From: Coriobacteriia bacterium
GTDB lineage: Bacteria > Actinomycetota > Coriobacteriia > WRKU01 > WQUG01
Direction: 5' to 3'
NCBI GenBank assembly: GCA_009781115.1
Contig: WQYT01000001.1
Span: 13,413-77,412 of the forward strand
Length of the DNA stretch: 64,000 nt
Numbering within the stretch: the first letter of the stretch is position 1; the number at the start of each line of letters is the position of its first letter. Made by a program: the position numbers and the translations under genes. The notes under the pieces are model-generated. The model had not been told where the DNA came from, did no database searches, and saw only the letters and a program-made list of their open reading frames with translations. This document shows, piece by piece, positions 11,569 through 26,778 of this stretch.

Positions 11569-12594
11569 CTACTCCCCGCGCCGCCAGATAGGGAGCTTTT
11601 CGATGATGAGCGCATGGGGGGCCCGCTTTGCCCGCAGCCCCCGGCCCAGATCGGCCTGATAGCTGGCAGCGGTCAGCGCGCCCGCCAGCTCAAGGTAGCG
11701 CGCCTGGGGCAGGCGCGAAGCCTCCGCCGGAAAGGCATCCAGCAGCGCGCGGCGCAGGACGCGGCGGATCATGACCGGGTCAAGCGTTGCCAGCATGTCA
11801 GCGTCCAGCATCAGGCGCTGGCCCTCATCCTGCTCTTGCGCATCGCAGAAGTCCCGCACAAAGCCAGCGGCCAGCTCATCAAGCAGCGCATCGTCTTCTG
11901 CCAGCAGGTCCATCGTGCGCTCAAGGTTAGCGCGAAACGCCGGGGCAAGCTCCTCTGCAGCCGGCACGATCCGCGCGCGAATAAACGCGCGGGTCCGGGT
12001 AGTATCAGTATTGGTCGCGTCCTCGCACCAGTCCTGGTCCTGTGCCTGCAGGTACGTGCGCAGCGATGTGCGGTCGCAGCGCAGCAGCGGCCGCACAATG
12101 CGCCCACGCTCAGGACGGATTGAAGCCAGCGCACCCGTCCCGGAGCCAAAAAGCGCCCGCTCAAAAAAGGTCTCAACACGATCATCAAGTGTGTGAGCGG
12201 TGGCAATGCGCCCGGCTTGCGGGTCCGCGTCCAACGCCGCGCACAGCTCATCGCAGAGCTCATCTGCCGCGGTGTAGCGCAGCTCGCGCCCCAGGTCCTC
12301 AACGTTGCGCTTCTCCTCTGCAGCCCGCGCGCCCACGTCAAGATGGCGCAGCACGCAGGCATAGCCCAGCCGGTCGCAGAGCTCAGCCACAAACGCCTCG
12401 TCCCCATCAGCCGCAGCGCCACGCAACCCGTGATTAACATGCAGCACACGAACGCGGTCCGGCGCCGGCGTCCGCCCGCCAAAAGCGCCGCCCGCCAAAA
12501 GCCGCAGCAAAGCGACCGAGTCCCCCCCGCCACTGACCATCACCACCAGCGGAGTTACAGCATCAAAAAGCTCTGTCAAAAGAGGAAATTCCAT
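11569..12594 (-). CDS. tilS: tRNA(Ile)-lysidine synthetase TilS
   Basis: PP-loop VMVSGGGDSVALL; conserved tilS-hpt-ftsH neighbourhood. Confidence 0.85.
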   Translation of the reverse strand: MEFPLLTELFDAVTPLVVMVSGGGDSVALLRLLAGGAFGGRTPAPDRVRVLHVNHGLRGAAADGDEAFVAELCDRLGYACVLRHLDVGARAAEEKRNVEDLGRELRYTAADELCDELCAALDADPQAGRIATAHTLDDRVETFFERALFGSGTGALASIRPERGRIVRPLLRCDRTSLRTYLQAQDQDWCEDATNTDTTRTRAFIRARIVPAAEELAPAFRANLERTMDLLAEDDALLDELAAGFVRDFCDAQEQDEGQRLMLDADMLATLDPVMIRRVLRRALLDAFPAEASRLPQARYLELAGALTAASYQADLGRGLRAKRAPHALIIEKLPIWRRGE

Positions 12595-12684
12595 ACTCTA
12601 GAGTATAAAGCATCCACCCCTCATCACTGCGAGCACGGTAGTTCCTGCACATTGACGCTCATCATGACCGCACAAGGAAAATAA

Positions 12685-13440
12685 CTACACTGGGATTCTT
12701 TCACGTAATACGAAATTGATAATAATGAAACTCAAAATAACAAAGATAGCCGCAGCGATTACGAGAGCATGATAGGTAGGTCGATTGAGAGATATTGGTT
12801 TTTCTCTTTTCCTGTTAAAGATAACTATGCACAACGCAAACACGCAACCAAAGAAAAGTAGATAATGGGGCCAATAGGACACAATGGCCTCCTTAATAGT
12901 AAGAATCAGGCCTGAATAATTGAGGTCTTCAACAATTATATGAAACGACCAAGCAAAACGGCAAATGAAGGCGACAATGCTGCCTACCAAACAGCTCAAA
13001 GGATACGGTTTGCAAATAATGCTTGTTCCAAAAACAAACCCAATAGTAAAAACAGCAAGACCGCCTAATACATATGCAAACGTCGGAAATACAAAAACTG
13101 AACCGGGCAGCGTGGCAACTTGAAATAGGTCGAACGCAACATGAAGAAAAATCATGCAAAGAAAGGCAGCGGTACCAAAAACAGCAGGCAAAGCAAATCT
13201 CTCAAATACAGACGAAAGCTCCTTCTGCTGAATAGTATCGCAATCACCAGCATGCTCAATACTACCTGATTTCGAACTACCTTCTCTTTTACCTAACATT
13301 GGAAACCTCTCTAAAAACATATGCAGAAGCTTATTATAACGAAACATAGGAACTGAGTAACCATAAGCAGTCGCTTTAGCGAATTTCAGGTTGCCCTGAC
13401 CGTCATAAGTAGTGATGACATCATTAAATGAGACAGGCAT
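12685..13440 (-). CDS. Hypothetical polytopic membrane protein (AT-rich island gene)
   Basis: ~5 predicted TM helices; low GC; N-terminus contains TTYDGQGNL, resembling a YD-repeat fragment. Start 7 nt after the upstream gene stop. Confidence 0.5.
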   Translation of the reverse strand: MPVSFNDVITTYDGQGNLKFAKATAYGYSVPMFRYNKLLHMFLERFPMLGKREGSSKSGSIEHAGDCDTIQQKELSSVFERFALPAVFGTAAFLCMIFLHVAFDLFQVATLPGSVFVFPTFAYVLGGLAVFTIGFVFGTSIICKPYPLSCLVGSIVAFICRFAWSFHIIVEDLNYSGLILTIKEAIVSYWPHYLLFFGCVFALCIVIFNRKREKPISLNRPTYHALVIAAAIFVILSFIIINFVLRERIPV

Positions 13441-13447
13441 ATCTAAG

Positions 13448-14116
13448 TCACTTCTTGATATTGGCGTTCTTCACAAGCTGTGCCACCAGCGCATCTATAG
13501 CCGTTGAGCGAGCATCGTTAAGGTAGTCTGCCTTGATTTCATCTTTCAGTTCTTCAAAGCTCCCGGCTCCTGCATAGCGATCCTTATGCGAGTTATAGTA
13601 GGCTTGCAGCTTTGCGTCAGAAGCTGAAGAATCAGGAACAAGGGATTTGGTAAGCGCAGCTATCGTCAGGTTATCAGCAACAGCGGTCTTGAGTTGCGCC
13701 TCTGTCATTCCTGCCTGCTTGAGTTTATCCTGCAATTGAGCGTCAGTACCATAGCTTTTAGCCAGCGAGCTATACGCTGCATCAATAACTTTGCCAGAAA
13801 TTTTAATCCCCTGCTTCTTGGCTTCCTGCAATAAAAGCTGTTGGTTGATAGCAGCATTCAGATTACGCTGATCAACATCCTGCTTACTTGCCGCTCCTCC
13901 ATTAGCATCAAAGATATCGGGAGTCTGCGAAAGTGGGAAAGCAGTCTGCTGATCAATATCTGCCTGCGTAATAGCCACCCCATTGACCTGAGCTACTGTC
14001 TTTGTATGTTGGCGCAGAAGCAGATAGGCAGTAAGAGCGCCTGCAGCAAGAACGACTATCGCTATTGCAACAACAATCCATTTATTGCGTTTGTATGATA
14101 CCCGTTTCTTTTTCAT
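13448..14116 (-). CDS. Membrane-anchored SurA_N/PrsA-like (chaperone-like) protein
   Basis: Start at MKKKR (ATG 14116) preceded by GGGAGG RBS; single N-terminal TM helix; VNGVAITQADIDQQ resembles the SurA N-domain; low GC. Confidence 0.55.
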   Translation of the reverse strand: MKKKRVSYKRNKWIVVAIAIVVLAAGALTAYLLLRQHTKTVAQVNGVAITQADIDQQTAFPLSQTPDIFDANGGAASKQDVDQRNLNAAINQQLLLQEAKKQGIKISGKVIDAAYSSLAKSYGTDAQLQDKLKQAGMTEAQLKTAVADNLTIAALTKSLVPDSSASDAKLQAYYNSHKDRYAGAGSFEELKDEIKADYLNDARSTAIDALVAQLVKNANIKK

Positions 14117-14157
14117 GTGGTTGCCTCCCAATTATTATCATGCTTAACAGGTATTGA

Positions 14158-15015
14158 TTAAGGCCAGTCTTTTGGGTTTATTGAGGCAACTCTATCATCT
14201 GGTGTTTCGTAGATATCACCTACCACAAAATTCTGTCTTTCTTTTTTATACGCGATATCTACAATGCCGTCTCTTGTCACATGTGCAGAATAGCATCGAT
14301 ATTCTGGGGAAAACACCGCTATGCTTATATTTTGAACATAGTAATTTGGCGTTGCTGCGTCACAATCAAAAAAGTTGATCTTTGTTGCGGGGTCAACCCT
14401 TTCGACATCCACGAGGGTGGAGCTTCCTTTCACAAAAGTGTCAAAATCCCGAAAACGTAGTGTCTTTCCGACAAACATACAACCAGCCGCTTGGTATTCG
14501 CCAGAGCTTGCTTGAGTGTAAAATACAAAAAGACGCCCACCAGACAAGCTATCATGCGCGCTGTAAGCCCATGAGCCACTATACGGCCCATCACTTATAC
14601 TGAAAGGTCGTAATTGAGAGACAGATACAAAACTCCGCACGTCATTGAGCGTGACTTCATGACCCGCGGAATCAAACGCACCTTCGAATGTTATCTTCCG
14701 CATAAGACCGAGTATATTTGTTTTACTCTCCCGAGAGGCCAACAATGCCCGATTAGGATCTCTCGCAACAGTTGGTGTTGACACAGTAGATTCTATAGAT
14801 TCGCTTTTCTGTTTTTCATTTGACACCTGATTCTTCTCTGCCCTGTTGTCTTTGCCCGGGCCTCCACATCCAGATGAAAGTATCATCAACAGTAAAATAA
14901 TTATGGCTCCCGTTCTTGCAATTTTCACAATCACACCGCCACGATATCTCGTCTTACGGAACAACTCTTGCTCCAGTTCGCTTCCCGCACCATCAAACAT
15001 TTCACACCATCCCAT
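14158..15015 (-). CDS. Putative lipoprotein, candidate immunity protein for the upstream RHS toxin
   Basis: Signal peptide with lipobox LSSGC; low GC; begins 63 bp downstream of the RHS stop on the same strand. Exact start codon uncertain. Confidence 0.5.
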   Translation of the reverse strand: MGWCEMFDGAGSELEQELFRKTRYRGGVIVKIARTGAIIILLLMILSSGCGGPGKDNRAEKNQVSNEKQKSESIESTVSTPTVARDPNRALLASRESKTNILGLMRKITFEGAFDSAGHEVTLNDVRSFVSVSQLRPFSISDGPYSGSWAYSAHDSLSGGRLFVFYTQASSGEYQAAGCMFVGKTLRFRDFDTFVKGSSTLVDVERVDPATKINFFDCDAATPNYYVQNISIAVFSPEYRCYSAHVTRDGIVDIAYKKERQNFVVGDIYETPDDRVASINPKDWP

Positions 15016-15078
15016 CTGTCACGTTCGGCAAAGCGTATATTAACACCAATACTCTACAGCCTTTATCGAGAAAACGCA

Positions 15079-18000
15079 CTATTGCCGCTTAAATTTTATC
15101 GCTAAATAAAGCGTCTTGCTATTGTAAATTATTCCGCCATTGTTTCCATAATTCTTACCCCATACATCGGGATTCACGCTAAAATTATGATACTGAATTT
15201 CGGATATCGGACTTGAGATATGTCCATGTTTTTCTGACCAATAGCCATAGCCATGAGTATCTTGTTTCATAAAATGAAAATCAAACGAACATACTCTTAT
15301 TGCGATTCGATATTCGTTACTATATGTTGAAGCGTTTTTGCCTGAGATTGCTCTTGCTTTGCTACTACCTACTTGTTTGATGACTGTTTTTCGAAAATTT
15401 TCCACAGTAGATAAAGAATCATTAGGATATTTACAACCTGAATGGATATTCATAGCATATGAATAGCAATTAAAATTAGCGGTAGGCTCATTAATCCATC
15501 CCCATGTTTTTGGTCCAACAATCCCATCAACAATCAACCCATTCATCGATTGGAATTTCTTTACCGCAGCTAGCGTATTTGTCCCAAAAATACCATCCTC
15601 TGCCAAAGCCTTGCCGTTTGAACCCCGTACTGTAAAGGTATTCAATCTCCTCTGAAGCTTTTTTACAGTTGCTCCTTGACTACCATATCTCACCGTGGAA
15701 TCAAGCCCGCTCGGATCCGTACCGCCCACCGGCTCTCCCGCACAATACATATACGGGCTCTTCTCGCCGTCTGCTTTGACAGGATCGCGGCTGATGAAGC
15801 TTGCGGTGGTCGGGTCATAGTAGCGTTGGCTGCAATAGTACAAGCCAGCCTCAGCATCCCAAACATAGCCCGCATAACGCAGAGGTTGTGCTGCTGATAT
15901 CTGCTGAGCCAGATCAAGGGCAATAAGCGATGTTGCAAATTCTGTGTCGGAAGTAATGTTTCCAAAAGCGTCATAGTCGTAGCGAGCAAAGGTATCCCCA
16001 TTGGTGTCTCTAAGCTCGCGTACGTCTCCTCTGGCATCACTGACAATCTCGAAGTTTACTGGAGCTGTCGTCGCAGTCGTAGTAGTGCTGTAGCAAGCCC
16101 CAACGGGTGTTGAGCCTGATCCATACAGATAGATGATGCTTTGAGTCTCTGTAGAAGATTTTGCGGCTAGCGAGACAAGCTTGGTACCGTCATAGAGGTA
16201 GTTGGTAGTATTGTTTCCTGCCGTCTTTGAAAGCCTCTGGCCTTCTGCGTCATAGGCGCAGGTGAACTTCGCAGGCCCGGTACCGCCATAATATCCTGAA
16301 ACCAGTCTCTGACCAGACCAGCCATAGGTGACCCCATGGTCATCTGATATTCTTCTGCCAAGCCCGTCATAGTTAAAAGAAAACGCTGTCGATACTATAA
16401 AGCCACCGCTACTTGAAGTACGTCCGGCAAGCCTTCCTGCCGTATCATAAGAGTAACTTGTCGCGCCTGCTTGAGTAATATCTCCGGTTGTCGCATTGTA
16501 AGCATAAGCCGTTGTAGTACCGCTCACTTTTGCCGAGGCAAGCTGGGTTCTGTCTGCCGAGTAGGTATAGCTGGCAGACTGAGCACCTAAGCGGCTATAG
16601 CTTGAAGATGTCAACTTTGAGTCATTAGCATCATAAGTATATGTTTTTTGTCCTGGTGCAGAAAGATTAGTGTCGCCTGTCAGGTTACCCTGACTGTCAT
16701 AGCTAAGCTGAGAGCTTTGGGCGCCAACGCTTCTGGCAGTCGGTCTTCCACCCTCGTCATAGCTGGTGTTTGCAGCACTTAGACTTGAACCAAACTTAGG
16801 AGTAAGCGTATCAGAAGCAAGAAGCGCTCCGTTGACAATGCTTGTCTGTGTTGTGCCGTCAGCGTAAGTCTCAGTCTTAGTCGTTACCGTCTGCGCGTTG
16901 ATTCCTGCCCCTGTGTTTTGGTAGGTAAAAGCCTGCTTGTAACCAGATACTGACTCATCGATTACGCTGGGGCGCCCTGCGCTGTCAAAGGTAGTGGCGA
17001 TATCTTTGAGCACCACTGTGTCTTTCAGTTCCTTTTGCTCAGTTATTCTTGAAAGGCCATCGTAAGTATAGTCAACCTCTGTGCCATCGGGATTGACCTG
17101 CTTGGTTACCCTTGAAGCATTATCGTAGGTCGTAGTAGTAGGATCATCGGCTCCGACTTTCTCGGTAAGCTGGTTGCCCGCCCTATCATAACTGTAAGTA
17201 GTAGTAACGCTATCAAAGTCAGTTTTTGAGAGAATATCTCCGCGTACATTGTAGATATTGGTAGTAGCCGTCTGCGTTCCCATTTTTGTGGTAAGCAAGC
17301 GACCAGCTAAGTCATAGGTAGAGACAGTCGTTATATCAGGCTTGCCAGAGGCGCTTTGCTTATCGGAGATAACGTTGCCAACCAGATCGTAGTCGCAGGT
17401 ATCAGTCACGCCACCATTTGTTTGTGTTATAGCATTACCCGAAACATCATAGGTCGTGCTCTGATCAGGTTGCCCCGTGGTTTTAGTTGAGGTAACGTTT
17501 CCGGCTGCGTTATAGGTTGTTGTAGTTGGCGCGCTATACGGGGTAGTAGTCGTGCCAAGCACATTGCTGCTTTGTATCTCTTGACCAGATGCATCATATT
17601 TGGTCGTTGTAGTCACTCCGTCAAGAGTTCCTTCGGATTTGGCTTGAATAACGTTTCCTGCCAGGTCACAGGTCGTAACACTTGCGCCTTGCTCCGAATT
17701 TGAGTCTGAAACAGCTTCTCTCCCAAGAACGTCATGAGTCATGGTCGTGATCTCAACGGCTGTTCCCGCACTATCAAGACTTGAAGCAGTAAGAGTGTTT
17801 CCTTGTGCGTCGTAGGTAGTCTTTGTCCAATTTGATTTGACAGACGAACCAGAAGGTAGCTGGTAAGTTTCGGTCACATTACCCAAGTTGTCATAAACAT
17901 TGGTAGTAACAAGCCCGGTCTTATCTGTTGAGGTAAGCAGAGAGCCTGCAACGTCATAGGTCGAGGTATCGGTGATAATCCCGCGCCCATCAGTATTTGA

Positions 18001-21000
18001 GAGTCTGTTGCCACAGTCATCAATGGCGCAGCTCGTGGTGATATCTTGCGGCGTAGCGCTTGTTGCCAGCTGCACTGAATGCTCAATGGTTTTCTGGGAG
18101 TTCCCGTCACAAGCGAAGTCTGAGTAATCCTTGATATCGAAGATATAGGAACCATCAGCATTCTTAGAGAGGGCAGTCTTTTCCTGAGTAGTAAAGCCTT
18201 GGGTGTTGTAGCTGTATTCAGTGCGCTTGCGCGCCCCATTGGCAGCAATCAGCTTTTCTGTCACAAGTATGTTTCCTTTGCTGTCAACGTCATTCCAGGT
18301 CACAGCTCGGGCGTTATCGATCATCTTAATCAGGTCGTTTGCGCTGTTGTAGTAGTACCAGGTCTCAAGCCCTGCCTTGTCGAGAGCGTAAGTCTGATTT
18401 CCCCTGCTGTCATAATCTGACTTGGTGGCGCCTGCCACCCCTACTGAAGCGGGGCAATTAGTAAAGGTAAGCCCATCGGCAGATGCAGATACCGGGTCTT
18501 TAGTCACGATGACCTGGTTGTAGGCATTGTAACTGGTATTTGTTCCATAAAGCTGGTCGACCGAAGCAGACGCCCATATCTCCTGCCCTGTTGGATCAGT
18601 AAGAAATACCTGTCTTTCTTGCCCGGCAGCAAAGCCACCTTGAGCTGTGGCCGAGCCTTTGTCCAATACAGCCTGGCCCACATTGGTTGAGCGCTTGGAA
18701 TAGGTCATGGTAGCAGGAGCAGGCGGGGCGCCTGAAGTGGTATGAGCAAAGCTCACTGAAGCGGTACCGTAAGTGATCGTAGCGCTGTCTTGTCCCCTGC
18801 TGACAGAGGTGATGCGCCCGGAAGCATCTGAAGTAAAGGTGTCGGTGACTTCCCGTGGGCTGCCTTCATATTCAGTCACGGTCATATTGTTGCCACTGAT
18901 TGCATAGGTAAAGGTCTTTGAAGCAGATACGCCTTCTAAGGTGAGGGTATAGCTTGTTGCAGAGTCCTTTGCCAGCTCCAACTTCTGCCCATTGGCAGCC
19001 GTGATGATAGCTCCTCCCGATCCATAACTGTAGGTAGTTTTGTTGTTATTGCGATCACAATCTGAAGTGATCTTTCCGTCAGATCCAAAGAGATGCTGGG
19101 CTCCATCGGCATCCTTTAAAGTGAACCCTGAACTTGTTTTTGTCAGTGTCGAGAACATGCCGGCAGGTGAGAGGTAGGTATCCGTGTTCTTGGGGTCCTG
19201 AGCAAAGAGAATGACCGTTCCGGCGCCATCCGTATACTGTACAGCACCCGTAGAAAGCGTAGTCATATTCTGCTCAAAGCTAAAACGCCAGCCTTTAGGA
19301 AGATAGCTTGAGGTAGAAGCCATATCTGAGAGGTAGGTACGGCTTACTGCGGCAGCAGGACCATAGGTAGCGATCGTAAGGTCGTCAGAGATGATACGGG
19401 TAGCCGCTCTGCCCTCTGCGGCCTCAACAGATTGCCCTGCAACAGTTCCTAACTGCGTATAGCCCGGGTTGGGATTATCAGACACTCTGACGGTACGGTT
19501 ATCCAGCGTGGGCGATACCACACTCGCAGAATAGACGGCGGTCTCTCCATTGGCGTCATAGGCCGCTACCCTGAACCAGTAGTTGACGTTGTTTTGATAG
19601 GTGGTCGTCTTTGATTTGCGATAGATCGCATTAGGGTTATCACGCAGATCAAGTCCGGATCCTGCAAAGGTATCGACATTGGTTCCGCTTGAGAGGTTGC
19701 CGCCAATAAAGCGCTTGGAGGTTGCGTCATAGCTAAACGACACCATGCACTTGGTAGCCTGGTCTGACTGGAGCCATGAATCAGTAAGCAAGTGGCTGGA
19801 TAGCGAGACTTTGTAGGTACGCGCAAGGTTAGTGCTCGTCCATTCCATCAGATAGAGGTTATATCCATCGGAGGTCACGCTGTCAAAGCTTCCAAAGGCT
19901 GTGGTGTTTGCTACAGAGATACTCCAGTCCTTTTCGAAGTGCCCGGTATCGTTGTATTGACGCACGCTGAATCCCTGACCCACTTTGCCTACTGAATAGA
20001 TATGGGCGCCATCACTGGTAAGCATCACCCCATAGCCAGTAGTTCCTGCTGCGATATCAGTACCCGCACTATAGCTGAGCAAAGGTTTATCAAAAGTGAA
20101 GCTTAAGCGACGCGCTGTAGTACTTTCAAAGGTTGATTCCGCGTAGGCAGCGATAGTGGTAGCGTTTGCTGTTGATGCTGTGATGGCGCCGTCATAGAGG
20201 ACCCCGTTAAGTACAAAGGCGCCAAGAGACTGCGGAACGCTGTCTGTAGTGCCTAAGATAACGGGACTTCCATAGGCAGGTTTTGCGTTTGGATAGTTTG
20301 TCTGGGTAAAGCGTACCCATTTGGCAGGTCCTTTGTAGGCGCCCCAGGCTTTGACATAGATGTACTTGCCATCAGGCACAACAATTCCGGAACCTCCGGA
20401 ACCCCCGTTGGTTCCGGTGGTATAAGGGGTTCCTGCTGGATAGGTAAGCGTAGCAGATGAGACTCTGGTTGCAGGGCTGGGACTTTGGCCTGCTGTGTAG
20501 GGGTTACCGGCATAAGTTCCATCTGCCCCATAGCCAGCTACGGTAGTATCGGTGGGATATAAGCCTGCGCCAGACGTTGACCAGGTGATGTTATTGCGCC
20601 CGAGCGTAGTCCCTACCTGACGATAGCTTACCCCATCATAGGTATAGATATGATAACCCGTTGCGTGAGAGTCAGCGCTCCATGAGAGCTTGACCGACCC
20701 CCTGCCGGCATCAGGATAGTCGTTTTTGTTATCAGCAACGCCATCTTTGTTCTTGTCGGTCTCTTTGAAGTAGGCGCCACTGGCTGAAGTTGTAGCGGAC
20801 AGGTTCTTTACGGGCTGCACCAGAGAGGAGCAGGTGATCGTGATATAAGGGGCATTGCCGCCAGCCACAGAAGAAAAAGCATGCCAGTTATTAGTAAGCG
20901 GTGTTGCCTCGGACTCATAGAGCACCAGCCCATAGAAAGCTGTACCTGAGGTAAGCGGGCCGGTAAGCGTTGATGTGATGTCATAGGTGGCCCACAGGCT

Positions 21001-22308
21001 TGTTCCGGTAATAGATGTCGAAGCAATCGCCGAAGACATCGCTGGTTTGTTGTTCCAGTTTACGTTGGTAGGAATAGCAGCTGACGCCTGAGCAAGATAG
21101 CTTGTAGCAGCAGCCGTAGTGAAACAGCGGGTTTGATAAGCGCTGAAGGTGACTTTGCTGACTGAGACCCCCGCCAGATTAGGCAGAGCATCAAAGGTGA
21201 TATAGCTACGGTATTTATTGCCCGTTGAGGTAGTACAGCCAGCAAGAAGTTCTGTTTGATGAAGCGTGGTAGTGGGGCTCACCGAGTTGACGCAGGCATC
21301 TGCAGCCACCGCAACGGTAGCCGTTGGATCGATCTTTACCGGCCATGCACGGTCTTTTGAGCCGAGCCAGTCTTCATTAATAGTAGCCCGAAAACGAGCA
21401 GAAGCCGCAGAAGAAGACAGGAGCTCCCAGGAAGTGTTGGGACAGATGCTACTGCCCGCTTGTCCTGTGCCTGAATCTTCTACAACCAGATCAGACAGCA
21501 AATAAGCGACGCTGCCGTCTGCTTTGACTAACTCCCACGTACCTTTATCTTGCTTAAGACTCAGTCCTGAGAAATCAAGCCTGAAGTCATAGGTGTTTTT
21601 AGTAGTGGGGGTATTAAGGAGCAGGGTCTCTTTTACTCCGCCTGAAAGCGCTTGATATTGCAGGGTGGTGTTGCCTGTCGGGTCAAGGTAGACGGCAGTG
21701 TCACCCAACGTTAAAGGTGAAGAAAGTTGTTGTCCGCAATAGGTGAAGGAGACGCTATAGGGAGCAGATGACGTTGTGTCCGCCGATATAGTTGCCGCTC
21801 CTGTTCCTGAGGCAGAAAAGGATGTCTTATTTTCAGTGGAAAGGGTCGTAACAGCGCCAACCGGAGAATCAGAACCTGATGCAACTAAGTTCGTCGAAAT
21901 GTCTACAAACTGATTATGATCGCCTTTGTAATGAATATCTCCTGTGGAAGCTACTATCTGTCGCTGACCATCAGAAAGCTCATAGGTCTTAGTCGTAGCA
22001 GTACGCTCTTCGATGATCTCACGCACACGTTTAGCATGGGGATCCTTAACTTGAGGTTTTACAACAGCGGCAGGATCAGGAATAGCGTCAGCGGGAGCAG
22101 TATAGGTAGCTTCACCTGAGCCAAGAGGAGGGGTGGAAGCTTCCTGAGAAGGAACAGCAGTGCTCTCATGTGAAGCCGCCACAGCAGAAGCAGGAATGAG
22201 CGCCAGAAGGAGAACGGCAGAAAGGAAAAAACATAACAACCTGCGTAAAGGACTGGTAAAACAGCCCTCGTCAAATGTAGGCACCGACAACTGATTTGTT
22301 TTCTTCAT
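15079..22308 (-). CDS. Sec-secreted RHS/YD-repeat polymorphic toxin (2409 aa) with C-terminal peptidoglycan-binding domain plus Cys/His toxin-like domain
   Basis: N-terminal signal peptide; dozens of YD repeats (YDxxGN, YTYDGLSRI...); RHS core terminates PVGGTDPSGL (DPxGL). A 207-aa tail follows: PG_binding_1-like (LQRRLN...DGIFGTNTLAAVKKFQ...DGIVGPKTW) and a 137-aa Cys/His domain (NCYSYAM...HGYGYWSEKHGH). AAGGAAGG RBS. GC markedly lower than flanks, lowest in the tail. Confidence 0.9.
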   Translation of the reverse strand: MKKTNQLSVPTFDEGCFTSPLRRLLCFFLSAVLLLALIPASAVAASHESTAVPSQEASTPPLGSGEATYTAPADAIPDPAAVVKPQVKDPHAKRVREIIEERTATTKTYELSDGQRQIVASTGDIHYKGDHNQFVDISTNLVASGSDSPVGAVTTLSTENKTSFSASGTGAATISADTTSSAPYSVSFTYCGQQLSSPLTLGDTAVYLDPTGNTTLQYQALSGGVKETLLLNTPTTKNTYDFRLDFSGLSLKQDKGTWELVKADGSVAYLLSDLVVEDSGTGQAGSSICPNTSWELLSSSAASARFRATINEDWLGSKDRAWPVKIDPTATVAVAADACVNSVSPTTTLHQTELLAGCTTSTGNKYRSYITFDALPNLAGVSVSKVTFSAYQTRCFTTAAATSYLAQASAAIPTNVNWNNKPAMSSAIASTSITGTSLWATYDITSTLTGPLTSGTAFYGLVLYESEATPLTNNWHAFSSVAGGNAPYITITCSSLVQPVKNLSATTSASGAYFKETDKNKDGVADNKNDYPDAGRGSVKLSWSADSHATGYHIYTYDGVSYRQVGTTLGRNNITWSTSGAGLYPTDTTVAGYGADGTYAGNPYTAGQSPSPATRVSSATLTYPAGTPYTTGTNGGSGGSGIVVPDGKYIYVKAWGAYKGPAKWVRFTQTNYPNAKPAYGSPVILGTTDSVPQSLGAFVLNGVLYDGAITASTANATTIAAYAESTFESTTARRLSFTFDKPLLSYSAGTDIAAGTTGYGVMLTSDGAHIYSVGKVGQGFSVRQYNDTGHFEKDWSISVANTTAFGSFDSVTSDGYNLYLMEWTSTNLARTYKVSLSSHLLTDSWLQSDQATKCMVSFSYDATSKRFIGGNLSSGTNVDTFAGSGLDLRDNPNAIYRKSKTTTYQNNVNYWFRVAAYDANGETAVYSASVVSPTLDNRTVRVSDNPNPGYTQLGTVAGQSVEAAEGRAATRIISDDLTIATYGPAAAVSRTYLSDMASTSSYLPKGWRFSFEQNMTTLSTGAVQYTDGAGTVILFAQDPKNTDTYLSPAGMFSTLTKTSSGFTLKDADGAQHLFGSDGKITSDCDRNNNKTTYSYGSGGAIITAANGQKLELAKDSATSYTLTLEGVSASKTFTYAISGNNMTVTEYEGSPREVTDTFTSDASGRITSVSRGQDSATITYGTASVSFAHTTSGAPPAPATMTYSKRSTNVGQAVLDKGSATAQGGFAAGQERQVFLTDPTGQEIWASASVDQLYGTNTSYNAYNQVIVTKDPVSASADGLTFTNCPASVGVAGATKSDYDSRGNQTYALDKAGLETWYYYNSANDLIKMIDNARAVTWNDVDSKGNILVTEKLIAANGARKRTEYSYNTQGFTTQEKTALSKNADGSYIFDIKDYSDFACDGNSQKTIEHSVQLATSATPQDITTSCAIDDCGNRLSNTDGRGIITDTSTYDVAGSLLTSTDKTGLVTTNVYDNLGNVTETYQLPSGSSVKSNWTKTTYDAQGNTLTASSLDSAGTAVEITTMTHDVLGREAVSDSNSEQGASVTTCDLAGNVIQAKSEGTLDGVTTTTKYDASGQEIQSSNVLGTTTTPYSAPTTTTYNAAGNVTSTKTTGQPDQSTTYDVSGNAITQTNGGVTDTCDYDLVGNVISDKQSASGKPDITTVSTYDLAGRLLTTKMGTQTATTNIYNVRGDILSKTDFDSVTTTYSYDRAGNQLTEKVGADDPTTTTYDNASRVTKQVNPDGTEVDYTYDGLSRITEQKELKDTVVLKDIATTFDSAGRPSVIDESVSGYKQAFTYQNTGAGINAQTVTTKTETYADGTTQTSIVNGALLASDTLTPKFGSSLSAANTSYDEGGRPTARSVGAQSSQLSYDSQGNLTGDTNLSAPGQKTYTYDANDSKLTSSSYSRLGAQSASYTYSADRTQLASAKVSGTTTAYAYNATTGDITQAGATSYSYDTAGRLAGRTSSSGGFIVSTAFSFNYDGLGRRISDDHGVTYGWSGQRLVSGYYGGTGPAKFTCAYDAEGQRLSKTAGNNTTNYLYDGTKLVSLAAKSSTETQSIIYLYGSGSTPVGACYSTTTTATTAPVNFEIVSDARGDVRELRDTNGDTFARYDYDAFGNITSDTEFATSLIALDLAQQISAAQPLRYAGYVWDAEAGLYYCSQRYYDPTTASFISRDPVKADGEKSPYMYCAGEPVGGTDPSGLDSTVRYGSQGATVKKLQRRLNTFTVRGSNGKALAEDGIFGTNTLAAVKKFQSMNGLIVDGIVGPKTWGWINEPTANFNCYSYAMNIHSGCKYPNDSLSTVENFRKTVIKQVGSSKARAISGKNASTYSNEYRIAIRVCSFDFHFMKQDTHGYGYWSEKHGHISSPISEIQYHNFSVNPDVWGKNYGNNGGIIYNSKTLYLAIKFKRQ

Positions 22309-22377
22309 GAGCTATCCTTCCTTAGACGAACTCTTTTACACAGATATAGTAGTAAGAAAAGAGGTTATCTGAACAGT

Positions 22378-22423
22378 GTGAAATCACCTGATTTTCGGAA
22401 TTAGCAAATTCAGGTGATTTCAC
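22378..22423. promoter_or_regulatory. Perfect 14-bp inverted repeat with 18-bp spacer (GTGAAATCACCTGA-N18-TCAGGTGATTTCAC) upstream of the RHS gene
   Basis: Arms read directly at 22378-22391 and 22410-22423. Lies 70-115 bp upstream of the RHS ATG, just upstream of a TACTAT/TATATC -10-like region; adjacent LuxR regulator gene. Confidence 0.4.
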
Positions 22424-22479
22424 CTGTATCAAAAAAGGCTCCGCTGGTCGTATTTGGGAGAATTACATAAGCTGCTTGC

Positions 22480-23868
22480 TTAAAGTTCGCCGTTGCGGAA
22501 CTTATTAACCAGCATAATGCGATTTCTTGAACCTGTTTTTGATAAGAGCGAATTGACATGGTTTTGCACCGTGGTTGTCTTAACGCCCATTACTGCAGCG
22601 ATCTCCTCGGTGCCTTTACTGTTGGCAAGCAATTGCACGACCTCTAATTCTCGACCGGTAAACGAGGTTTTTGTTAAAACAGTTTGCTTATGTTCAGTAA
22701 CTTCCGGCTGATTCTTCTGCGGCAAAGCATCCAGGAAAATCAGAAGCACAAATACCAAAACCGCAAAAAGGATAATGGTTAACGGCAACAGAAACTCTGC
22801 CCGCCTGGCAAAGTCTGCCACTGAAAGCCCCAGCACATGCAAGTTTAAAAAGCCCTCACTGGAAAAATACACGAGCAAGCCCAAGCCTGCAATGAAGCCC
22901 TTATGCGAACGCCGCGCAGCCGCGATCATACAAAGAATATGGATAAGAAACACACAGCCTTTTACCCCAAGGTTGAGCAATAGATAAGCCATATTGTTTC
23001 CCGGAGAGTCCCCGTAAAGAAAAAGGGGCAGAAGGCAGCCCAACACCAGCAAAACAATCGGGATAGCCATGTTCAGTATACTGAATCGCTTATCTATCAA
23101 ATACCCTAAAAGAGCGCCAAAGGGAATGCGCAAAATGATAATGACCAAATAAAGGAACGGTATGCTTGCTGTCCCCCCTTGCTTTTCTAACGTTCCTGAA
23201 TTCATCACCTGTCCCAAAAGAACCAGGATGGTGAGCCCAACCAATAAAAGACCCAGACTACGCGAAGCCAAAACTCTCGATTCCAATGGATCTGGACTCC
23301 CTACGTCTTCGTTGCTTTTTGGCCAAAAATAAAACGCCGCAGATAAAAGCACCACCAAGATAAGAAACCCTATCGTAGTGATGGGTGTCTTTGGAAGAAG
23401 CGCCGATAAAAATTGGTAACCAAGTTTGAAGGGATATATCGCAAGAGAATAGAGGCTTGCAGAAATGCCGATTTTCAGCCCCCGGTTTCGCGCGTCGCCA
23501 CTTTCAAGGAAACTCACCAGCACCGCACAAACAAATAGTCCAATAATAATACCAAACCCGACAGATAGGACGATCAAAAACGACGTCCCTTGAAATGCAA
23601 GCATCCCGATACTGTATATCAGCAAAAGAATCGGCGCTAGGCCACGATAGGCGCGACAAAACTGTGGGTAGAAATGTTCAAGTAGCCCGTAAAGCAAAAT
23701 CCCCAGAGGAATCAGCTGTAGCGTAGCGTTTCCTGCAGCACTGAAACGCCCACTGGTTACATAAATAAGCTCGGCAGCGATGCCAATCGCTACCATCGAT
23801 AGACAGAGCGCTAAGAAGGGGTGATTCTTTTTACTTTTTAGCAAAAGGAGGGATTTATCGCTATCCAT
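22480..23868 (-). CDS. LuxR-family transcriptional regulator with ~10-12 TM N-terminal membrane domain
   Basis: C-terminal HTH (LEVVQLLANSKGTEEIAAVMGVKTTTVQNHVNSLLSKTG); long hydrophobic N-terminal region; AT-rich. Confidence 0.8.
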   Translation of the reverse strand: MDSDKSLLLLKSKKNHPFLALCLSMVAIGIAAELIYVTSGRFSAAGNATLQLIPLGILLYGLLEHFYPQFCRAYRGLAPILLLIYSIGMLAFQGTSFLIVLSVGFGIIIGLFVCAVLVSFLESGDARNRGLKIGISASLYSLAIYPFKLGYQFLSALLPKTPITTIGFLILVVLLSAAFYFWPKSNEDVGSPDPLESRVLASRSLGLLLVGLTILVLLGQVMNSGTLEKQGGTASIPFLYLVIIILRIPFGALLGYLIDKRFSILNMAIPIVLLVLGCLLPLFLYGDSPGNNMAYLLLNLGVKGCVFLIHILCMIAAARRSHKGFIAGLGLLVYFSSEGFLNLHVLGLSVADFARRAEFLLPLTIILFAVLVFVLLIFLDALPQKNQPEVTEHKQTVLTKTSFTGRELEVVQLLANSKGTEEIAAVMGVKTTTVQNHVNSLLSKTGSRNRIMLVNKFRNGEL

Positions 23869-24031
23869 CTTTCTCTCTCCGTTTCATCTATTTTAGAATT
23901 TTAATTTCAATATCGAGTTTTTTATTAAATCTTATTATAAAGCTTTACGTTCAGATAAAACAATTCAAATAGTCAACGGCTGGATTGCGGCGTCGCGCAT
24001 TGATGGGGATCTTTTGCCAGCCCAAACGAGC

Positions 24032-24056
24032 GACGCGCCGGGTCGTCGCGCCCTAC
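24032..24056. repeat. REP hairpin copy plus adjacent GCATTGATGNGGGTCTNTTGGCAG direct repeats (23996-24140)
   Basis: Direct read. Confidence 0.6.
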
Positions 24057-24182
24057 GCATTGATGCGGGTCTGTTGGCAGCCCCAAGCGCATACATTAAT
24101 GCGGGTCTCTTGGCGGGTCAGACGCGCGCATTGATGCAGAGCAGTTTCCCGTGCCAAAGCTAACATGAATTAATGTAGCTTA

Positions 24183-26762
24183 TTACCACTTTGTGCGGCG
24201 GTGGCGCTGGATGGCTTTTACGGCTTCGTACCAGAAGACTGAGAGGGCGGCAGCAGCGATTACCGCAAGCATTCGCGCTGGGCTCAGCGGCGCCAGCTGG
24301 AAGAGCCCGGCCAGCGGGGTGTAGAGTATGGCCGCAATGCCCACCAGCGTTGCGATGTTGACGATGCCAATCACACGGTCGCCGAACAAGTACCTGAAGT
24401 TCGCCGTAACCGGCGCGGTGTTAGAGCTGTTGACCTGCACCAAAAAGAGGTTGGCCAGAAACACCACGCAGAGCCCCATTGCGCGCGCTACCGGGGCGCT
24501 TGCTCCCGTTTTCAGGCTGTAGTAGTACAGCCCAAAGCTCGCCGCAAAAACACAGAGGCCTTGCAGCAGGCTCTTGACCAGCACCGCGCGTGACAGGATG
24601 CCCTCGCGCGGGTCGCGGGGGGGCCGCCGCATGACATCGCGCTCTGCCGGTTGGCGCTCAAAGACGATCGAGCAGGTCGGGTCGATGATGAGCTCCAGCA
24701 GCAGCACATGCGCGGGCAATAGCATGAGCTGCGCCGGGTTCAGATGCAGCAAGGGCGCAAGCAGCGCCGTCAGCATGATCGGGATGTGGATCGTGAAGAT
24801 GTAGCCGATGGCCTTGCGGATATTCTCGTAAATCCGGCGCCCGTCTTCGACGGTGGCCGTGATGGTCGCAAAGTTGTCATCAAGCAGAATCAGGTCGGCT
24901 GCCTCGCGCGAAACCTCAGAGCCCCGCTTGCCCATCGCAACGCCGATGTCGGCGTACTTAAGCGCGGGCGCGTCGTTGACGCCGTCACCGGTCATGGCGA
25001 CAATCGCGCCGTTAGCGCGAAACGCCTTAACGATGCTCATCTTATCTGCTGGCAACACGCGCGAGAAGATGTTGGTGGTCTGGACCCGCGTTTGCAGCTC
25101 GTCTGCGCTGAGCTGCGCCAAATCGGCGCCGGTGCAGACCTGATCGCTGTGCGCAATGCCGACACGGGCCGCAATGGCGCTGGCCGTAAGCCCGTTATCC
25201 CCGGTGATCATGACCACGCGGATCCCCGCCCGCTGGCACTGCGCGATATCTGCCGCCACGCCCTCGCGCGGCGGGTCGGCCAGGCCGATCAGGCCGGCAA
25301 GCGTCAGGCGGCAGTCTGCCAGCGACGCTGGCAGCGCCTCGCGCGAGGCCGGATGCGCGAAGCCCACGGCGATCACGCGCAGGCCCTGCTCGGAAAACGC
25401 GCGCAATTGTGCGGCGGCGGCATCGCGCTCTTCTGCCGTCAGGTCGCAGATCGCCAGAATCGACTCGGGCGAGCCCTTGGCCGCTACCGTCAGGCGGCCC
25501 TCGTGGACCCAGACATGGCCCATCATTTTGGCCTCATCAGTAAAGGCATATTCGCTGACAAAATCGCTGGTCGCCGATTCAAAGAGGTGCGCGGTTGTGA
25601 TGCCATGGTCCTCGCAGGCGCGCAGCATGGCTTGCTCCATCGGGTCGTAGGCTGACGTTTCGCAGGCCAGGCCCATCGTCTCATAGAGGCCTTCCGTGTC
25701 GCCTGCGGGGCTCCAGTCACGGGTGACCGTCATGCGGTTTTGTGTGATCGTGCCGGTCTTGTCCACGCACAGCACCGATATCGCGCCCAGCGTTTCAAGC
25801 GCGGGCAGGCGGCGAATCAGGGAGTGCTTTTTTGCCAGACGCCAGGCGCCCATCGAGAGAAATACCGCCAGCACGACCGGGAACTCCTCCGGGATCATGG
25901 CCATCGCCAACGTGATGCCGGCCAGGACGGAGTCGATCAGGCGGTTTTTGGGCAGCAGATCGCCCAGGTTAAAATACGTGATGACCACGGCCAGCGTGCA
26001 GAACACAACGGCAATGATGACGCAGACCTTGACGACTTTGGATATCTGCTTTTCGAGCGGCGTGGGGCGCTCGGGCGCCTCGGCGATGTGGACGCCGATC
26101 TTGCCGTACTCGGTCTGGGCGCCTATTGCGTCAACGAGGACCGTCGCCGAGCCCTGGGTAACCAGCGTCCCGGCGTAGCAGTAGTCGCGGCGCCAGTACT
26201 CTTCTGGTACGGGAGTGGTGGTGGTTGGGGCAGCGGCGTCAGTTGGGGGTGCGGGTGTCGCGTCCTCATCGGGCGCCGCGACGACCTTCCAGACGCCGAC
26301 CGACTCGCCCGTCAGGGAGGACTCATCAACGCACAGATCGCTTGCTTTAAGAATCGTCCCATCAGCGGGGATCTTGACGCCTTCGGTAATGATGAGCATA
26401 TCTCCCGGCACCAGGTCGGTACTGGGAATCTGGCATTGAGCCCCGTCGCGAATGACGGTCGCTGTTGGCGCGGACAAGCTCTTGAGCGCGTCCAGCGTCT
26501 GATCGGTCCGCCATTCCTGAAAGATCTCGATCCCAATGACGGCAACCACGAACACGAGCATGATTGACCCATCGCGCGGCTCGTTTAACAAGAAGTAGAC
26601 AAGGGCAGCTGCGATCAACAGGATGAACATTGGTTCACGCAGGATGCCCAGCGCCTTGAGCAGAAAGCTTTTCTTTTTCTCGGGACTCAGCTCGTTTTTG
26701 CCGAACTCCTTTTGGAGTTCGGCTGCCTGCTGCGAGGTAAGTCCTGTTGTGTTCATCTGCAT
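24183..26762 (-). CDS. Cation-transporting P-type ATPase (P2-type, Ca2+/Mg2+-like)
   Basis: DKTGTIT phosphorylation motif; TGDN/GDGVNDAPAL motifs; ~10 TM. Start chosen at ATG 26762 with GGAG RBS (track start 26777 is TTG). Confidence 0.9.
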   Translation of the reverse strand: MQMNTTGLTSQQAAELQKEFGKNELSPEKKKSFLLKALGILREPMFILLIAAALVYFLLNEPRDGSIMLVFVVAVIGIEIFQEWRTDQTLDALKSLSAPTATVIRDGAQCQIPSTDLVPGDMLIITEGVKIPADGTILKASDLCVDESSLTGESVGVWKVVAAPDEDATPAPPTDAAAPTTTTPVPEEYWRRDYCYAGTLVTQGSATVLVDAIGAQTEYGKIGVHIAEAPERPTPLEKQISKVVKVCVIIAVVFCTLAVVITYFNLGDLLPKNRLIDSVLAGITLAMAMIPEEFPVVLAVFLSMGAWRLAKKHSLIRRLPALETLGAISVLCVDKTGTITQNRMTVTRDWSPAGDTEGLYETMGLACETSAYDPMEQAMLRACEDHGITTAHLFESATSDFVSEYAFTDEAKMMGHVWVHEGRLTVAAKGSPESILAICDLTAEERDAAAAQLRAFSEQGLRVIAVGFAHPASREALPASLADCRLTLAGLIGLADPPREGVAADIAQCQRAGIRVVMITGDNGLTASAIAARVGIAHSDQVCTGADLAQLSADELQTRVQTTNIFSRVLPADKMSIVKAFRANGAIVAMTGDGVNDAPALKYADIGVAMGKRGSEVSREAADLILLDDNFATITATVEDGRRIYENIRKAIGYIFTIHIPIMLTALLAPLLHLNPAQLMLLPAHVLLLELIIDPTCSIVFERQPAERDVMRRPPRDPREGILSRAVLVKSLLQGLCVFAASFGLYYYSLKTGASAPVARAMGLCVVFLANLFLVQVNSSNTAPVTANFRYLFGDRVIGIVNIATLVGIAAILYTPLAGLFQLAPLSPARMLAVIAAAALSVFWYEAVKAIQRHRRTKW

Positions 26763-26778
26763 TGCCACTCCTACCAAA

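Follow-up and report, generated by a model that had tools for sequence, protein, structure and literature searches.

A predicted pair of dyad operators between a membrane-embedded LuxR-type regulator and an RHS toxin gene in a Coriobacteriia bacterium

In a 64,000-nucleotide (nt) stretch of contig WQYT01000001.1 (Coriobacteriia bacterium, assembly GCA_009781115.1; the whole stretch is referred to here as the window), a gene for a membrane-embedded LuxR-type regulator lies directly upstream of a gene for a giant RHS protein, and the spacer between these two minus-strand genes carries a perfect 14-N18-14 inverted repeat. Comparison of this spacer with those of related loci suggests that the functional unit is two copies of a ~16-bp 7-2-7 dyad (CAGGTGA-NN-TCACCTG), instead of one 14-N18-14 palindrome or an RNA structure. 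The membrane regulator probably binds the two dyads and, on ligand sensing, activates the RHS toxin gene and the genes downstream of it. In the scheme inferred here, which covers binding, dimer stoichiometry, the direction of activation, the promoter positions and the nature of the signal, helix-turn-helix (HTH) dimers of the regulator would occupy both dyads in the spacer before the RHS gene, with the proximal dimer near -43, at a class II activator position and abutting a weak -35 element and a TAnnnT -10 box. A ligand sensed by the 12-transmembrane (TM) domain would then switch on the RHS toxin together with the genes behind it. The predicted features of the spacer are listed below, the strand being that of the two genes.

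22309–22479, between both minus-strand genes: regulator–RHS spacer, 171 nt
22411–22426, minus strand: predicted operator site 1 (distal), CAGGTGAAATCACCTG, CAGGTGA-AA-TCACCTG, a perfect 7-2-7 dyad, containing the right repeat arm (22410–22423)
22374–22390, minus strand: predicted operator site 2 (proximal), CAGGTGATTTCACACTG, CAGGTGA-TT-TCACACTG, overlapping the left repeat arm (22378–22391)
22368–22375, minus strand: -35-like element (TGTTCA / TTCAGA), 16–18 nt upstream of the -10, read by inspection
22346–22351, minus strand: putative -10 of the RHS promoter, TACTAT, inferred from conservation
22315–22323, minus strand: ribosome-binding site (RBS) of the RHS gene, AAGGAAGGA, with a GGAGG/GGAAGG block before the ATG kept in all loci

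The repeat consists of GTGAAATCACCTGA at 22378–22391 and its exact reverse complement at 22410–22423, giving the perfect 14-N18-14 arrangement (22378–22423) that an earlier note on this DNA had described, and with one mismatch allowed the arms grow to 18 nt around a 10-nt loop. It adjoins the regulator gene, as that note had stated, at a distance of 56 nt from the stop codon and not the 57 bp given there; its position 70–115 nt upstream of the RHS ATG (22308) and the presence of TACTAT and TATATC in the RHS promoter region both agree with the earlier description. None of 500 shuffles of the 171-nt spacer reached a 14/14 repeat, and none of 100 shuffles of the window reached three matches to the 14-mer, which with up to two mismatches occurs in the 64 kb as the two arms and one 2-mismatch match at 40299–40312. 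The repeat was not found in the unrelated loci fetched or in viral contigs, in line with the expectation that it would not recur at many unrelated loci, and it is confirmed as non-generic and far beyond chance.

Several other kinds of element were considered and rejected. A generic repeat or a miniature inverted-repeat transposable element is at odds with the element being unique across the window, the other loci and the viral contigs. By inspection, the GTGA/TCAC half-sites stand 2 bp apart and not 6, and the sequence varies by locus, which rejects a CRP/FNR-type box, while an invertible promoter fails on an 18-nt interval that is far too short and on the absence of a recombinase gene nearby. 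The additional match in the window, CACGTGAAATCACCGG at 40300–40315 (minus strand), differs from operator site 1 at two positions (~0.03 such matches expected by chance, own estimate) and lies in a gene for a 940-amino-acid (aa) Wzy_C/Glyphos_transf protein (cell-wall polymer), ~100 nt past its 5′ end. This match is probably due to chance, but it could mark a second target of the regulator if the start of that gene was mis-called.

The palindrome had been put forward as the functional element; the repeat itself stands, but the unit is better described as two ~16-bp 7-2-7 dyads, which are arranged as direct repeats in four of the related loci (L003, L007, L009 and L021). In most loci the distal site has dyad symmetry of its own, which is why the two copies look both direct and inverted. 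The left half of site 2 is perfect in the window, and the right half is degenerate and merges into the -35-like element. The two window sites are 36 bp apart from centre to centre, and 39 nt separate the start of site 2 from the putative -10 downstream, so that site 2 is centred near -43 and site 1 near -79, the -10, -35 and start positions of the RHS promoter being predictions from the sequence.

The spacer comparison covers eight loci in gene orientation (the window, L003, L005, L007, L009, L016, L017 and L021), and the alignment of these spacers brings site 1, site 2, a TGnTAnnnT box and the RBS each into register; site 1 of the window lies opposite its counterpart in each of the other seven. 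The predicted sites are as follows.

Window: distal CAGGTGAAATCACCTG, proximal CAGGTGATTTCACACTG
L007: distal ACAGGTTAAAATCACCTGT, proximal ACAGGACAAAATCACACTG
L003: distal CATGTGAAAACACATG, proximal CATGTGAAAACACACTG
L021: distal CATGTGAAATCACATG, proximal CATGTGAAAACACATG, third and more distal copy TATGTGAATCCACATG
L017: distal GAGTTGAAAACAACTG, proximal CAGTTGGAATCGCACTG
L016: distal TATTAGAAAACCACTA, proximal CAGTGGAAAACACACTT
L009: distal ATAGAGGTAATAATTACCTCTAT, proximal ATAGAGGTAATAATTACCCTG
L005: distal TACGATATCATCTCAAT, proximal an inverted copy of the distal site

Each spacer contains two ~16-bp dyad copies (three in L021) set 31–37 bp apart, and the proximal site starts 38–42 nt upstream of the TAnnnT box in seven of the eight loci. 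The -10-like TAnnnT box itself is present in all eight, preceded by TGn (extended -10) in six, and by inspection a -35-like TGGTCA/TGTTCA hexamer comes directly after site 2, sharing bases with the degenerate right half of that site, with counterparts such as TGGTCA in L007, TGGTGC in L003, TGGTCT in L017 and TTGTTA in L016. Taken by itself, the repeat is significant in five of the eight spacers (window, L003, L005, L009 and L021; 0–1 of 500 shuffles). Each operator is unique within its locus, and the sites occur only in the regulator–target spacer. The three copies of L021 (5438–5522) stand 31 and 37 bp apart, and when measured to an alternative TGTATTAC box, the distance is again the usual 39 nt.

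The orientation of the copies and the capacity to form a hairpin are not kept across these loci. A direct repeat describes the copies better in L003, L007 and L021, and the test with a 14-nt window also favors the direct orientation in L009 (14 vs. 13). Only two loci have a strong predicted hairpin between the sites, the window (-29.5 kcal/mol, z = -7.9) and L005 (-34.1 kcal/mol, z = -11.1), and the inter-site hairpins of L007, L016 and L017 do not exceed those of shuffled controls. As the hairpin is absent or not kept while the sites stay at fixed positions, the conserved feature appears to be a pair of protein-sized DNA sites and not base-pairing.

The protein expected to read these sites is encoded by the adjacent gene, for which the following features were assigned.

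22480–23868, minus strand: gene for the membrane LuxR-type regulator, 462 aa (open reading frame, translation, Pfam GerE match with E = 1e-9)
22507–22665, minus strand: GerE/LuxR HTH region, residues 402–454, ~20 residues past TM12, recognition helix TTTVQNHVNSLLSK
22726–23823, minus strand: 12-TM, MFS-like N-terminal sensor domain, residues ~16–381, in a 6+6 arrangement with a central loop at 183–203
23934–23939, minus strand: TATAAT, -10-like hexamer of the regulator's own promoter, 66 nt 5′ of the ATG, assigned by inspection

On its sequence, the regulator (462 aa) is a transcription factor of the one-component type, embedded in the membrane, in which a 12-TM domain is joined to a LuxR-type HTH. 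The GerE/LuxR HTH (residues 402–454) is matched with E = 1e-9 and 38.3 bits against a Pfam cut-off of 23.5, and NCBIfam models of the LuxR/NarL family match the same residues. Hydropathy gives nine clear TM segments, to which three weaker ones were added by inspection, and the AlphaFold model places 12 long helices within residues 17–381 in a 6+6 arrangement; the estimate of ~10–12 TM helices before the HTH thus holds, at 12 by both approaches. The mean predicted local distance difference test (pLDDT) score of this model is 62.6 overall and 73–86 in the HTH region, the model being weak because its alignment comprised only nine sequences. The Pfam MFS_1 match to the membrane domain reaches 28.0 bits, under the gathering score of 33.4, and the top Foldseek matches in PDB are all MFS transporters (E ~5e-4, TM-score ~0.47, on the weak model), so the assignment of the sensor domain to an MFS-like fold is tentative.

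Most of the regulator genes have a putative promoter of their own. A TATAAT hexamer lies at a comparable place before the regulator gene in L003, L007, L009 and L013, with TATACT in L011, and a -10-like hexamer is found upstream of every regulator gene except that of L005. No operator copy was found upstream of the regulator gene in any locus; autoregulation was rejected on this ground.

The pairing of HTH domains with operators supports the adjacent regulator as the reader of the sites. In pairwise comparisons, the TM domains of the regulators are 45–75% identical and the HTH domains 29–75%. The recognition helices of P0002 and P0003 are 83% identical, and for this reason the two were expected to share an operator; the prediction was made from the helices before their DNA was examined, and the operator common to both is CATGTGAAAnCACATG. 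P0007, in contrast, is 72–75% identical to P0002 and P0003 in the TM domain but only 22–33% in the recognition helix, and its operator differs (ACAGGTTAAAATCACCTGT). Similarly, the most deviant helices (P0004 and P0006) pair with the two most deviant operators. These comparisons suggest that the operator sequence follows the HTH recognition helix and not overall relatedness. Domain scans with Pfam and NCBIfam found no other DNA-binding gene in the cassette. In addition, an exhaustive hidden Markov model search retrieved two distant relatives, P0164 and P0165, in which the recognition helices of the second HTH are near-identical, and their loci share another spacer element, GGGT(T)AG..TTAACCC, upstream of the targets. 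Each of the distant relatives, at L022 (9539–9715) and L023 (9545–9746), has a pair of HTH domains and a high-GC host; their spacer element reads GGGT(T)AG..TTnTGCnAAAATTAACCC and is followed by genes for lipoproteins in L022 and for a 7831-aa protein in L023, near which an SLH-domain protein and Tad-like genes are also encoded.

A number of observations weigh against two dimers of the adjacent regulator on two dyads. The second site in L016 and L017 is too degenerate for significance of its own (447–458 of 500 shuffles) and is recognized by alignment only, and the repeat in L007 is marginal (36 of 500 shuffles). The unit in L005 is weakly self-symmetric (self-dyad 10/25 and 14/25) while the copies are clearly inverted relative to each other (20/25), and because of this the arrangement of two dimers on two dyads fits L005 less well. 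In L021, an 11-bp deletion between site 2 and the -10 brings the site 11 bp nearer the aligned -10. The operators of the window and L007 are similar even though the recognition helices are 33% identical, so the helix–operator code is not simple, and with only eight loci, shared ancestry is not fully separable from co-evolution.

Among the alternatives, the one that stays closest to the proposed mechanism is that the regulator binds both sites but represses the RHS promoter until a signal releases it from the DNA. The comparative support for binding applies equally to this alternative, and since the start site is a prediction, the sites could overlap the true promoter; the nearer position of site 2 in L021 would cover the -35, and DegU, a member of the LuxR/NarL family, negatively regulates the RHS operon wapAI (PMC8321402). 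The site geometry points the other way, as in seven of the eight loci site 2 ends just before the -35-like hexamer with its centre near -43 and site 1 lies ~36 bp further up, which is usual for activators, and the -35 elements are weak, as expected of activator-dependent promoters. All three characterized 12-TM LuxR regulators are, moreover, activators, and this precedent (DadR, CadR and HcdR) together with the geometry favors activation and makes repression unlikely. Somewhat less likely again is a role of the inverted repeat as an RNA stem-loop, either a terminator lacking a U-tract or a stabilizer at the 3′ end of the regulator mRNA, which would insulate the RHS gene from read-through and might add to the operator role. 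Terminators without U-tracts have been proposed for Actinobacteria, a matter of debate, and the very stable stem-loops of the window and L005, with that of the window starting 56 nt past the regulator stop codon, would suit such a role. No T-run follows the stem, however, no Rfam match was obtained (E <= 1), and the hairpin is absent or no better than shuffles in L007, L016 and L017, while the copies in L003, L009 and L021 are better as direct repeats. A Rho-independent terminator in the strict sense was rejected on the missing T-run, the absence of a call in the terminator scan and the lack of conservation in the former three loci.

It is also conceivable, though improbable, that another transcription factor encoded elsewhere binds the dyads and that the adjacent LuxR protein regulates something else or binds a different site. 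The core GTGAAAnCAC is common to six loci and could be read by a single factor, and the similarity of the window and L007 operators in spite of dissimilar helices agrees with this. The flanking half-sites, on the other hand, are locus-specific and change with the adjacent HTH while the rest of the protein is equally related, the sites are confined to the regulator–target spacer of each locus, and the cassette yielded no second DNA-binding gene. A host-encoded partner is unlikely because the whole low-GC unit moves into different chromosomal contexts. The last alternative, in which the repeat is a functionless chance match or the remnant of a generic repeat or mobile element, can draw on the fact that short two-copy repeats may arise by chance in AT-richer intergenic DNA and on the GC-rich repeats nearby at 23996–24157. 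The shuffles of spacer and window, the uniqueness of the element in the 64 kb and its absence from unrelated loci and viral contigs argue strongly against it, as do the positionally homologous repeats of other sequence in related cassettes, and it is effectively refuted. Activation by the adjacent membrane regulator through two dyads is the reading preferred here.

The regulator belongs to a set of proteins with few members. Exact copies are present in two assemblies, and its relatives comprise eight clusters among 5.8 billion, at about 49–57% identity (P0009 being a C-terminally divergent fragment), all of them from termite-gut metagenomes. For the seven related cassettes, the identity of the regulators is 49–58%. 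The P0002 locus lies in the Coriobacteriia metagenome-assembled genome (MAG) Lab288P4bin85, and P0003 is titled ‘MAG: ... [Coriobacteriia bacterium]’. A genome search with the regulator protein alone returned no relative, and alignment-based scans of genomes and metagenomes yielded just two further copies of loci already found, one in a MAG (L021) and one that is longer (L017); given this small yield, the subfamily looks truly small.

The DNA downstream of the regulator could be read in seven loci (the window, L003, L005, L007, L009, L017 and L021), the L016 contig stopping just past the downstream start codon. All seven share the order of a TM-LuxR gene, a spacer of 150–170 nt and a same-strand gene for a giant signal-peptide protein of 570 to >2300 aa. 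The giant protein is of the RHS type in three of the seven (window, L005 and L017; 57–58% identical), and those of L003, L007, L009 and L021 are of a second type with a similar signal peptide. BLASTP against the RHS protein of the window gave weak matches to the L007 and L009 giants in the DNRLRE region and no match to those of L003 and L021. The L003 giant (11571–16976) has DNRLRE, Ig-like domains, DUF6531 and a weak Zn-phospholipase-C-like C-terminus, without an RHS shell, and is followed by small open reading frames of 120–140 aa. As judged by these domain contents, the regulated targets would be giant DNRLRE-domain secreted proteins in general, with RHS proteins as one type. A small, termite-gut-specific TM-LuxR subfamily thus appears to have been recruited, with private operators, to cassettes for giant toxins or surface proteins.

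In every termite-gut locus, the regulator, the giant gene and the downstream genes have 43–50% GC, with 44–50% for the regulator and giant gene, vs. about 54–62% in the hosts, and the cassettes lie in differing contexts; for example, the window cassette is set between a P-type ATPase gene and tilS-hpt-ftsH, and that of L003 follows mfd-eno-divIC-DUF501. The low GC and the differing chromosomal contexts point to horizontal mobility of the whole module, which suggests that regulator, private operators and toxin move together as a low-GC mobile cassette. The combination of a conserved sensor with diversified HTH domains and operators would allow a common cue to be read through insulated promoters, although this is speculation. 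A broader and only tentative proposal is that these mobile low-GC units are ‘self-regulated weapon’ cassettes, in which an MFS-like transceptor–LuxR protein with a conserved sensor (for the same environmental or neighbor-derived cue), a rapidly diversifying HTH and a private operator pair would let several cassettes share a cell or a community without cross-talk, each gating its own giant toxin or surface protein.

The genes around the regulator and its spacer in the window are as follows.

24183–26777, minus strand: P-type ATPase gene (list of open reading frames and sequence)
15079–22308, minus strand: RHS gene, 2409 aa, with signal peptide, DNRLRE/CBM96, DUF6531, YD/RHS shell, Rhs core to DPSGL and C-terminal tip
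14158–15015, minus strand: gene for a 285-aa lipoprotein-like protein with lipobox LSSGC, a candidate immunity protein
13448–14131, minus strand: gene for a membrane-anchored SurA_N-like protein (Pfam SurA_N_3, E = 1.8e-15)
12685–13440, minus strand: small open reading frame, the third of three after the RHS gene

Beyond the small open reading frames lie tilS, hpt and ftsH, and all genes of the region are on the minus strand. The segment of ~12.5–24 kb has a GC content of 42–52% vs. 56–68% in the flanks. A GC-rich ~31-nt repeat (CGCATTGATGCGGGTCTGTTGGCAGCCC-like) is present four times at 23996–24157, where high-GC DNA meets low-GC DNA in the interval from the ATPase gene to the regulator's promoter, and a similar motif, GACGC(C/G)GCAATCCAG, is found upstream of the L009 regulator.

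By its domain content, the downstream 2409-aa protein is a true RHS polymorphic toxin, with Rhs_assc_core at residues 2112–2202 (E = 2e-20), matches to RHS_repeat and YD_repeat_2x, DUF6531, DNRLRE and the DPSGL cleavage motif. In the sole full-length comparison, that between the window and L005, the alignment ends at residue 2202, with nothing aligned beyond the core. The tip past DPSGL (15079–15705, minus strand) consists of a PG_binding_1 domain followed by ~135 aa, which gave no sequence match in Pfam or PDB; Cys/His-rich motifs such as NCYSYA occur in the tip. The 285-aa lipoprotein-like protein has no match in Pfam or NCBIfam and no homologue in L005, where the toxin tip differs, and because the orthologous locus with another tip has no counterpart, it is a plausible immunity protein. 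Tip and 285-aa protein together look like a cell-wall-targeting toxin and its extracytoplasmic immunity protein. Between the window and L005 (419–1087), the SurA_N-like protein shares 75% identity, above the regulator (54%) and the RHS protein (57%); its gene is downstream of the toxin in the window and directly upstream of the regulator in L005, and the protein may assist the giant protein in export or folding.

To our knowledge, it is poorly understood how Gram-positive and actinobacterial gut bacteria time the release of Sec-exported RHS/WapA-like toxins. A membrane sensor wired to a toxin promoter would give a handle on this timing, as finding the ligand would mean finding the trigger of antagonism. 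If the reading as a mobile cassette is true, the 12-TM LuxR class would gain its first defined operators, and Gram-positive RHS toxins their first dedicated one-component switch at the membrane. The class would then reach past catabolic reductases to cell-surface and toxin genes. The eight cassettes also amount to natural HTH/operator pairs, including near-isogenic swaps (P0002/P0003 vs. P0007), which could be used to derive a recognition code and orthogonal inducible promoters in Coriobacteriia.

The architecture, which had been called typical of membrane LuxR regulators, is indeed published for Coriobacteriia (PMC9734109). DadR, CadR and HcdR of Eggerthella lenta are LuxR-type proteins with 10–12 TM helices that act as ligand-dependent activators of adjacent genes, and one E. 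lenta genome encodes 83 transmembrane LuxR proteins, 74 of them with 10–12 TM helices (Dong et al., 2022; PMC9734109). That paper mentions no operators, toxin targets, palindromes, inverted repeats or MFS similarity, and a later paper employs the family for phylogeny only. The regulator described here shares with DadR, CadR and HcdR an N-terminal 12-TM domain, a C-terminal pfam00196 HTH, occurrence in Coriobacteriia and a gene beside the presumed target. The E. lenta regulators, however, neighbor molybdenum or flavin reductases and respond to the substrates of these enzymes, whereas the neighbor here is a giant secreted RHS/DNRLRE protein. Conservation in the E. lenta family is found in the DNA-binding domains, with TM domains <20% identical (PMC9734109), and the reverse holds here, with TM domains 45–75% and HTH domains 29–75% identical.

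Among well-studied LuxR-type proteins, LuxR acts at a lux box with its centre at -42.5, and NarL recognizes sites of the 7-2-7 type. The likeness to LuxR/TraR at the lux box and to NarL lies in a GerE-type HTH expected to act as a dimer on a dyad, in the 7-2-7 form of site 1 and in a proximal site near -43. The differences are that LuxR and NarL carry a cytoplasmic autoinducer-binding or receiver domain, whereas the protein here has an integral membrane sensor and two sites 31–37 bp apart, and that the site sequences are unrelated. ToxR, TcpP and CadC similarly combine sensing and DNA binding in one membrane-anchored polypeptide, an arrangement because of which the promoter DNA must come to the membrane; these proteins have an N-terminal OmpR-type winged helix, one TM segment and a periplasmic sensor, in contrast to the 12 TM segments and C-terminal LuxR-type HTH found here. 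MFS transporters and ‘transceptors’ share the 12 TM helices in a 6+6 arrangement, the difference being that the protein here is fused to a DNA-binding domain.

On the side of the toxin, the closest parallel is WapA/WapI, in which a Sec-exported Gram-positive RHS protein of ~2300–2400 aa is likewise followed by an immunity gene, which is a candidate in the window (PMC8321402). The WapA tip is a tRNase, whereas the tip here combines a peptidoglycan-binding module with a module that has no detected relatives. An HTH protein of the LuxR/NarL family also acts on wapAI transcription, with DegS-DegU repressing wapAI in B. subtilis (PMC8321402). Full-text literature searches found no transmembrane LuxR protein linked to RHS or polymorphic toxins. 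The earlier suggestion of a novel regulatory logic for RHS loci is narrowed accordingly, because signal-dependent control of a Gram-positive RHS toxin by the LuxR/NarL family has a precedent, and it is kept only for a dedicated, adjacent and membrane-embedded regulator. DegU is a response regulator with a global role, cytoplasmic and encoded elsewhere, and represses its target, whereas the regulator in the window would be dedicated to the adjacent toxin gene, embedded in the membrane and travelling with the toxin.

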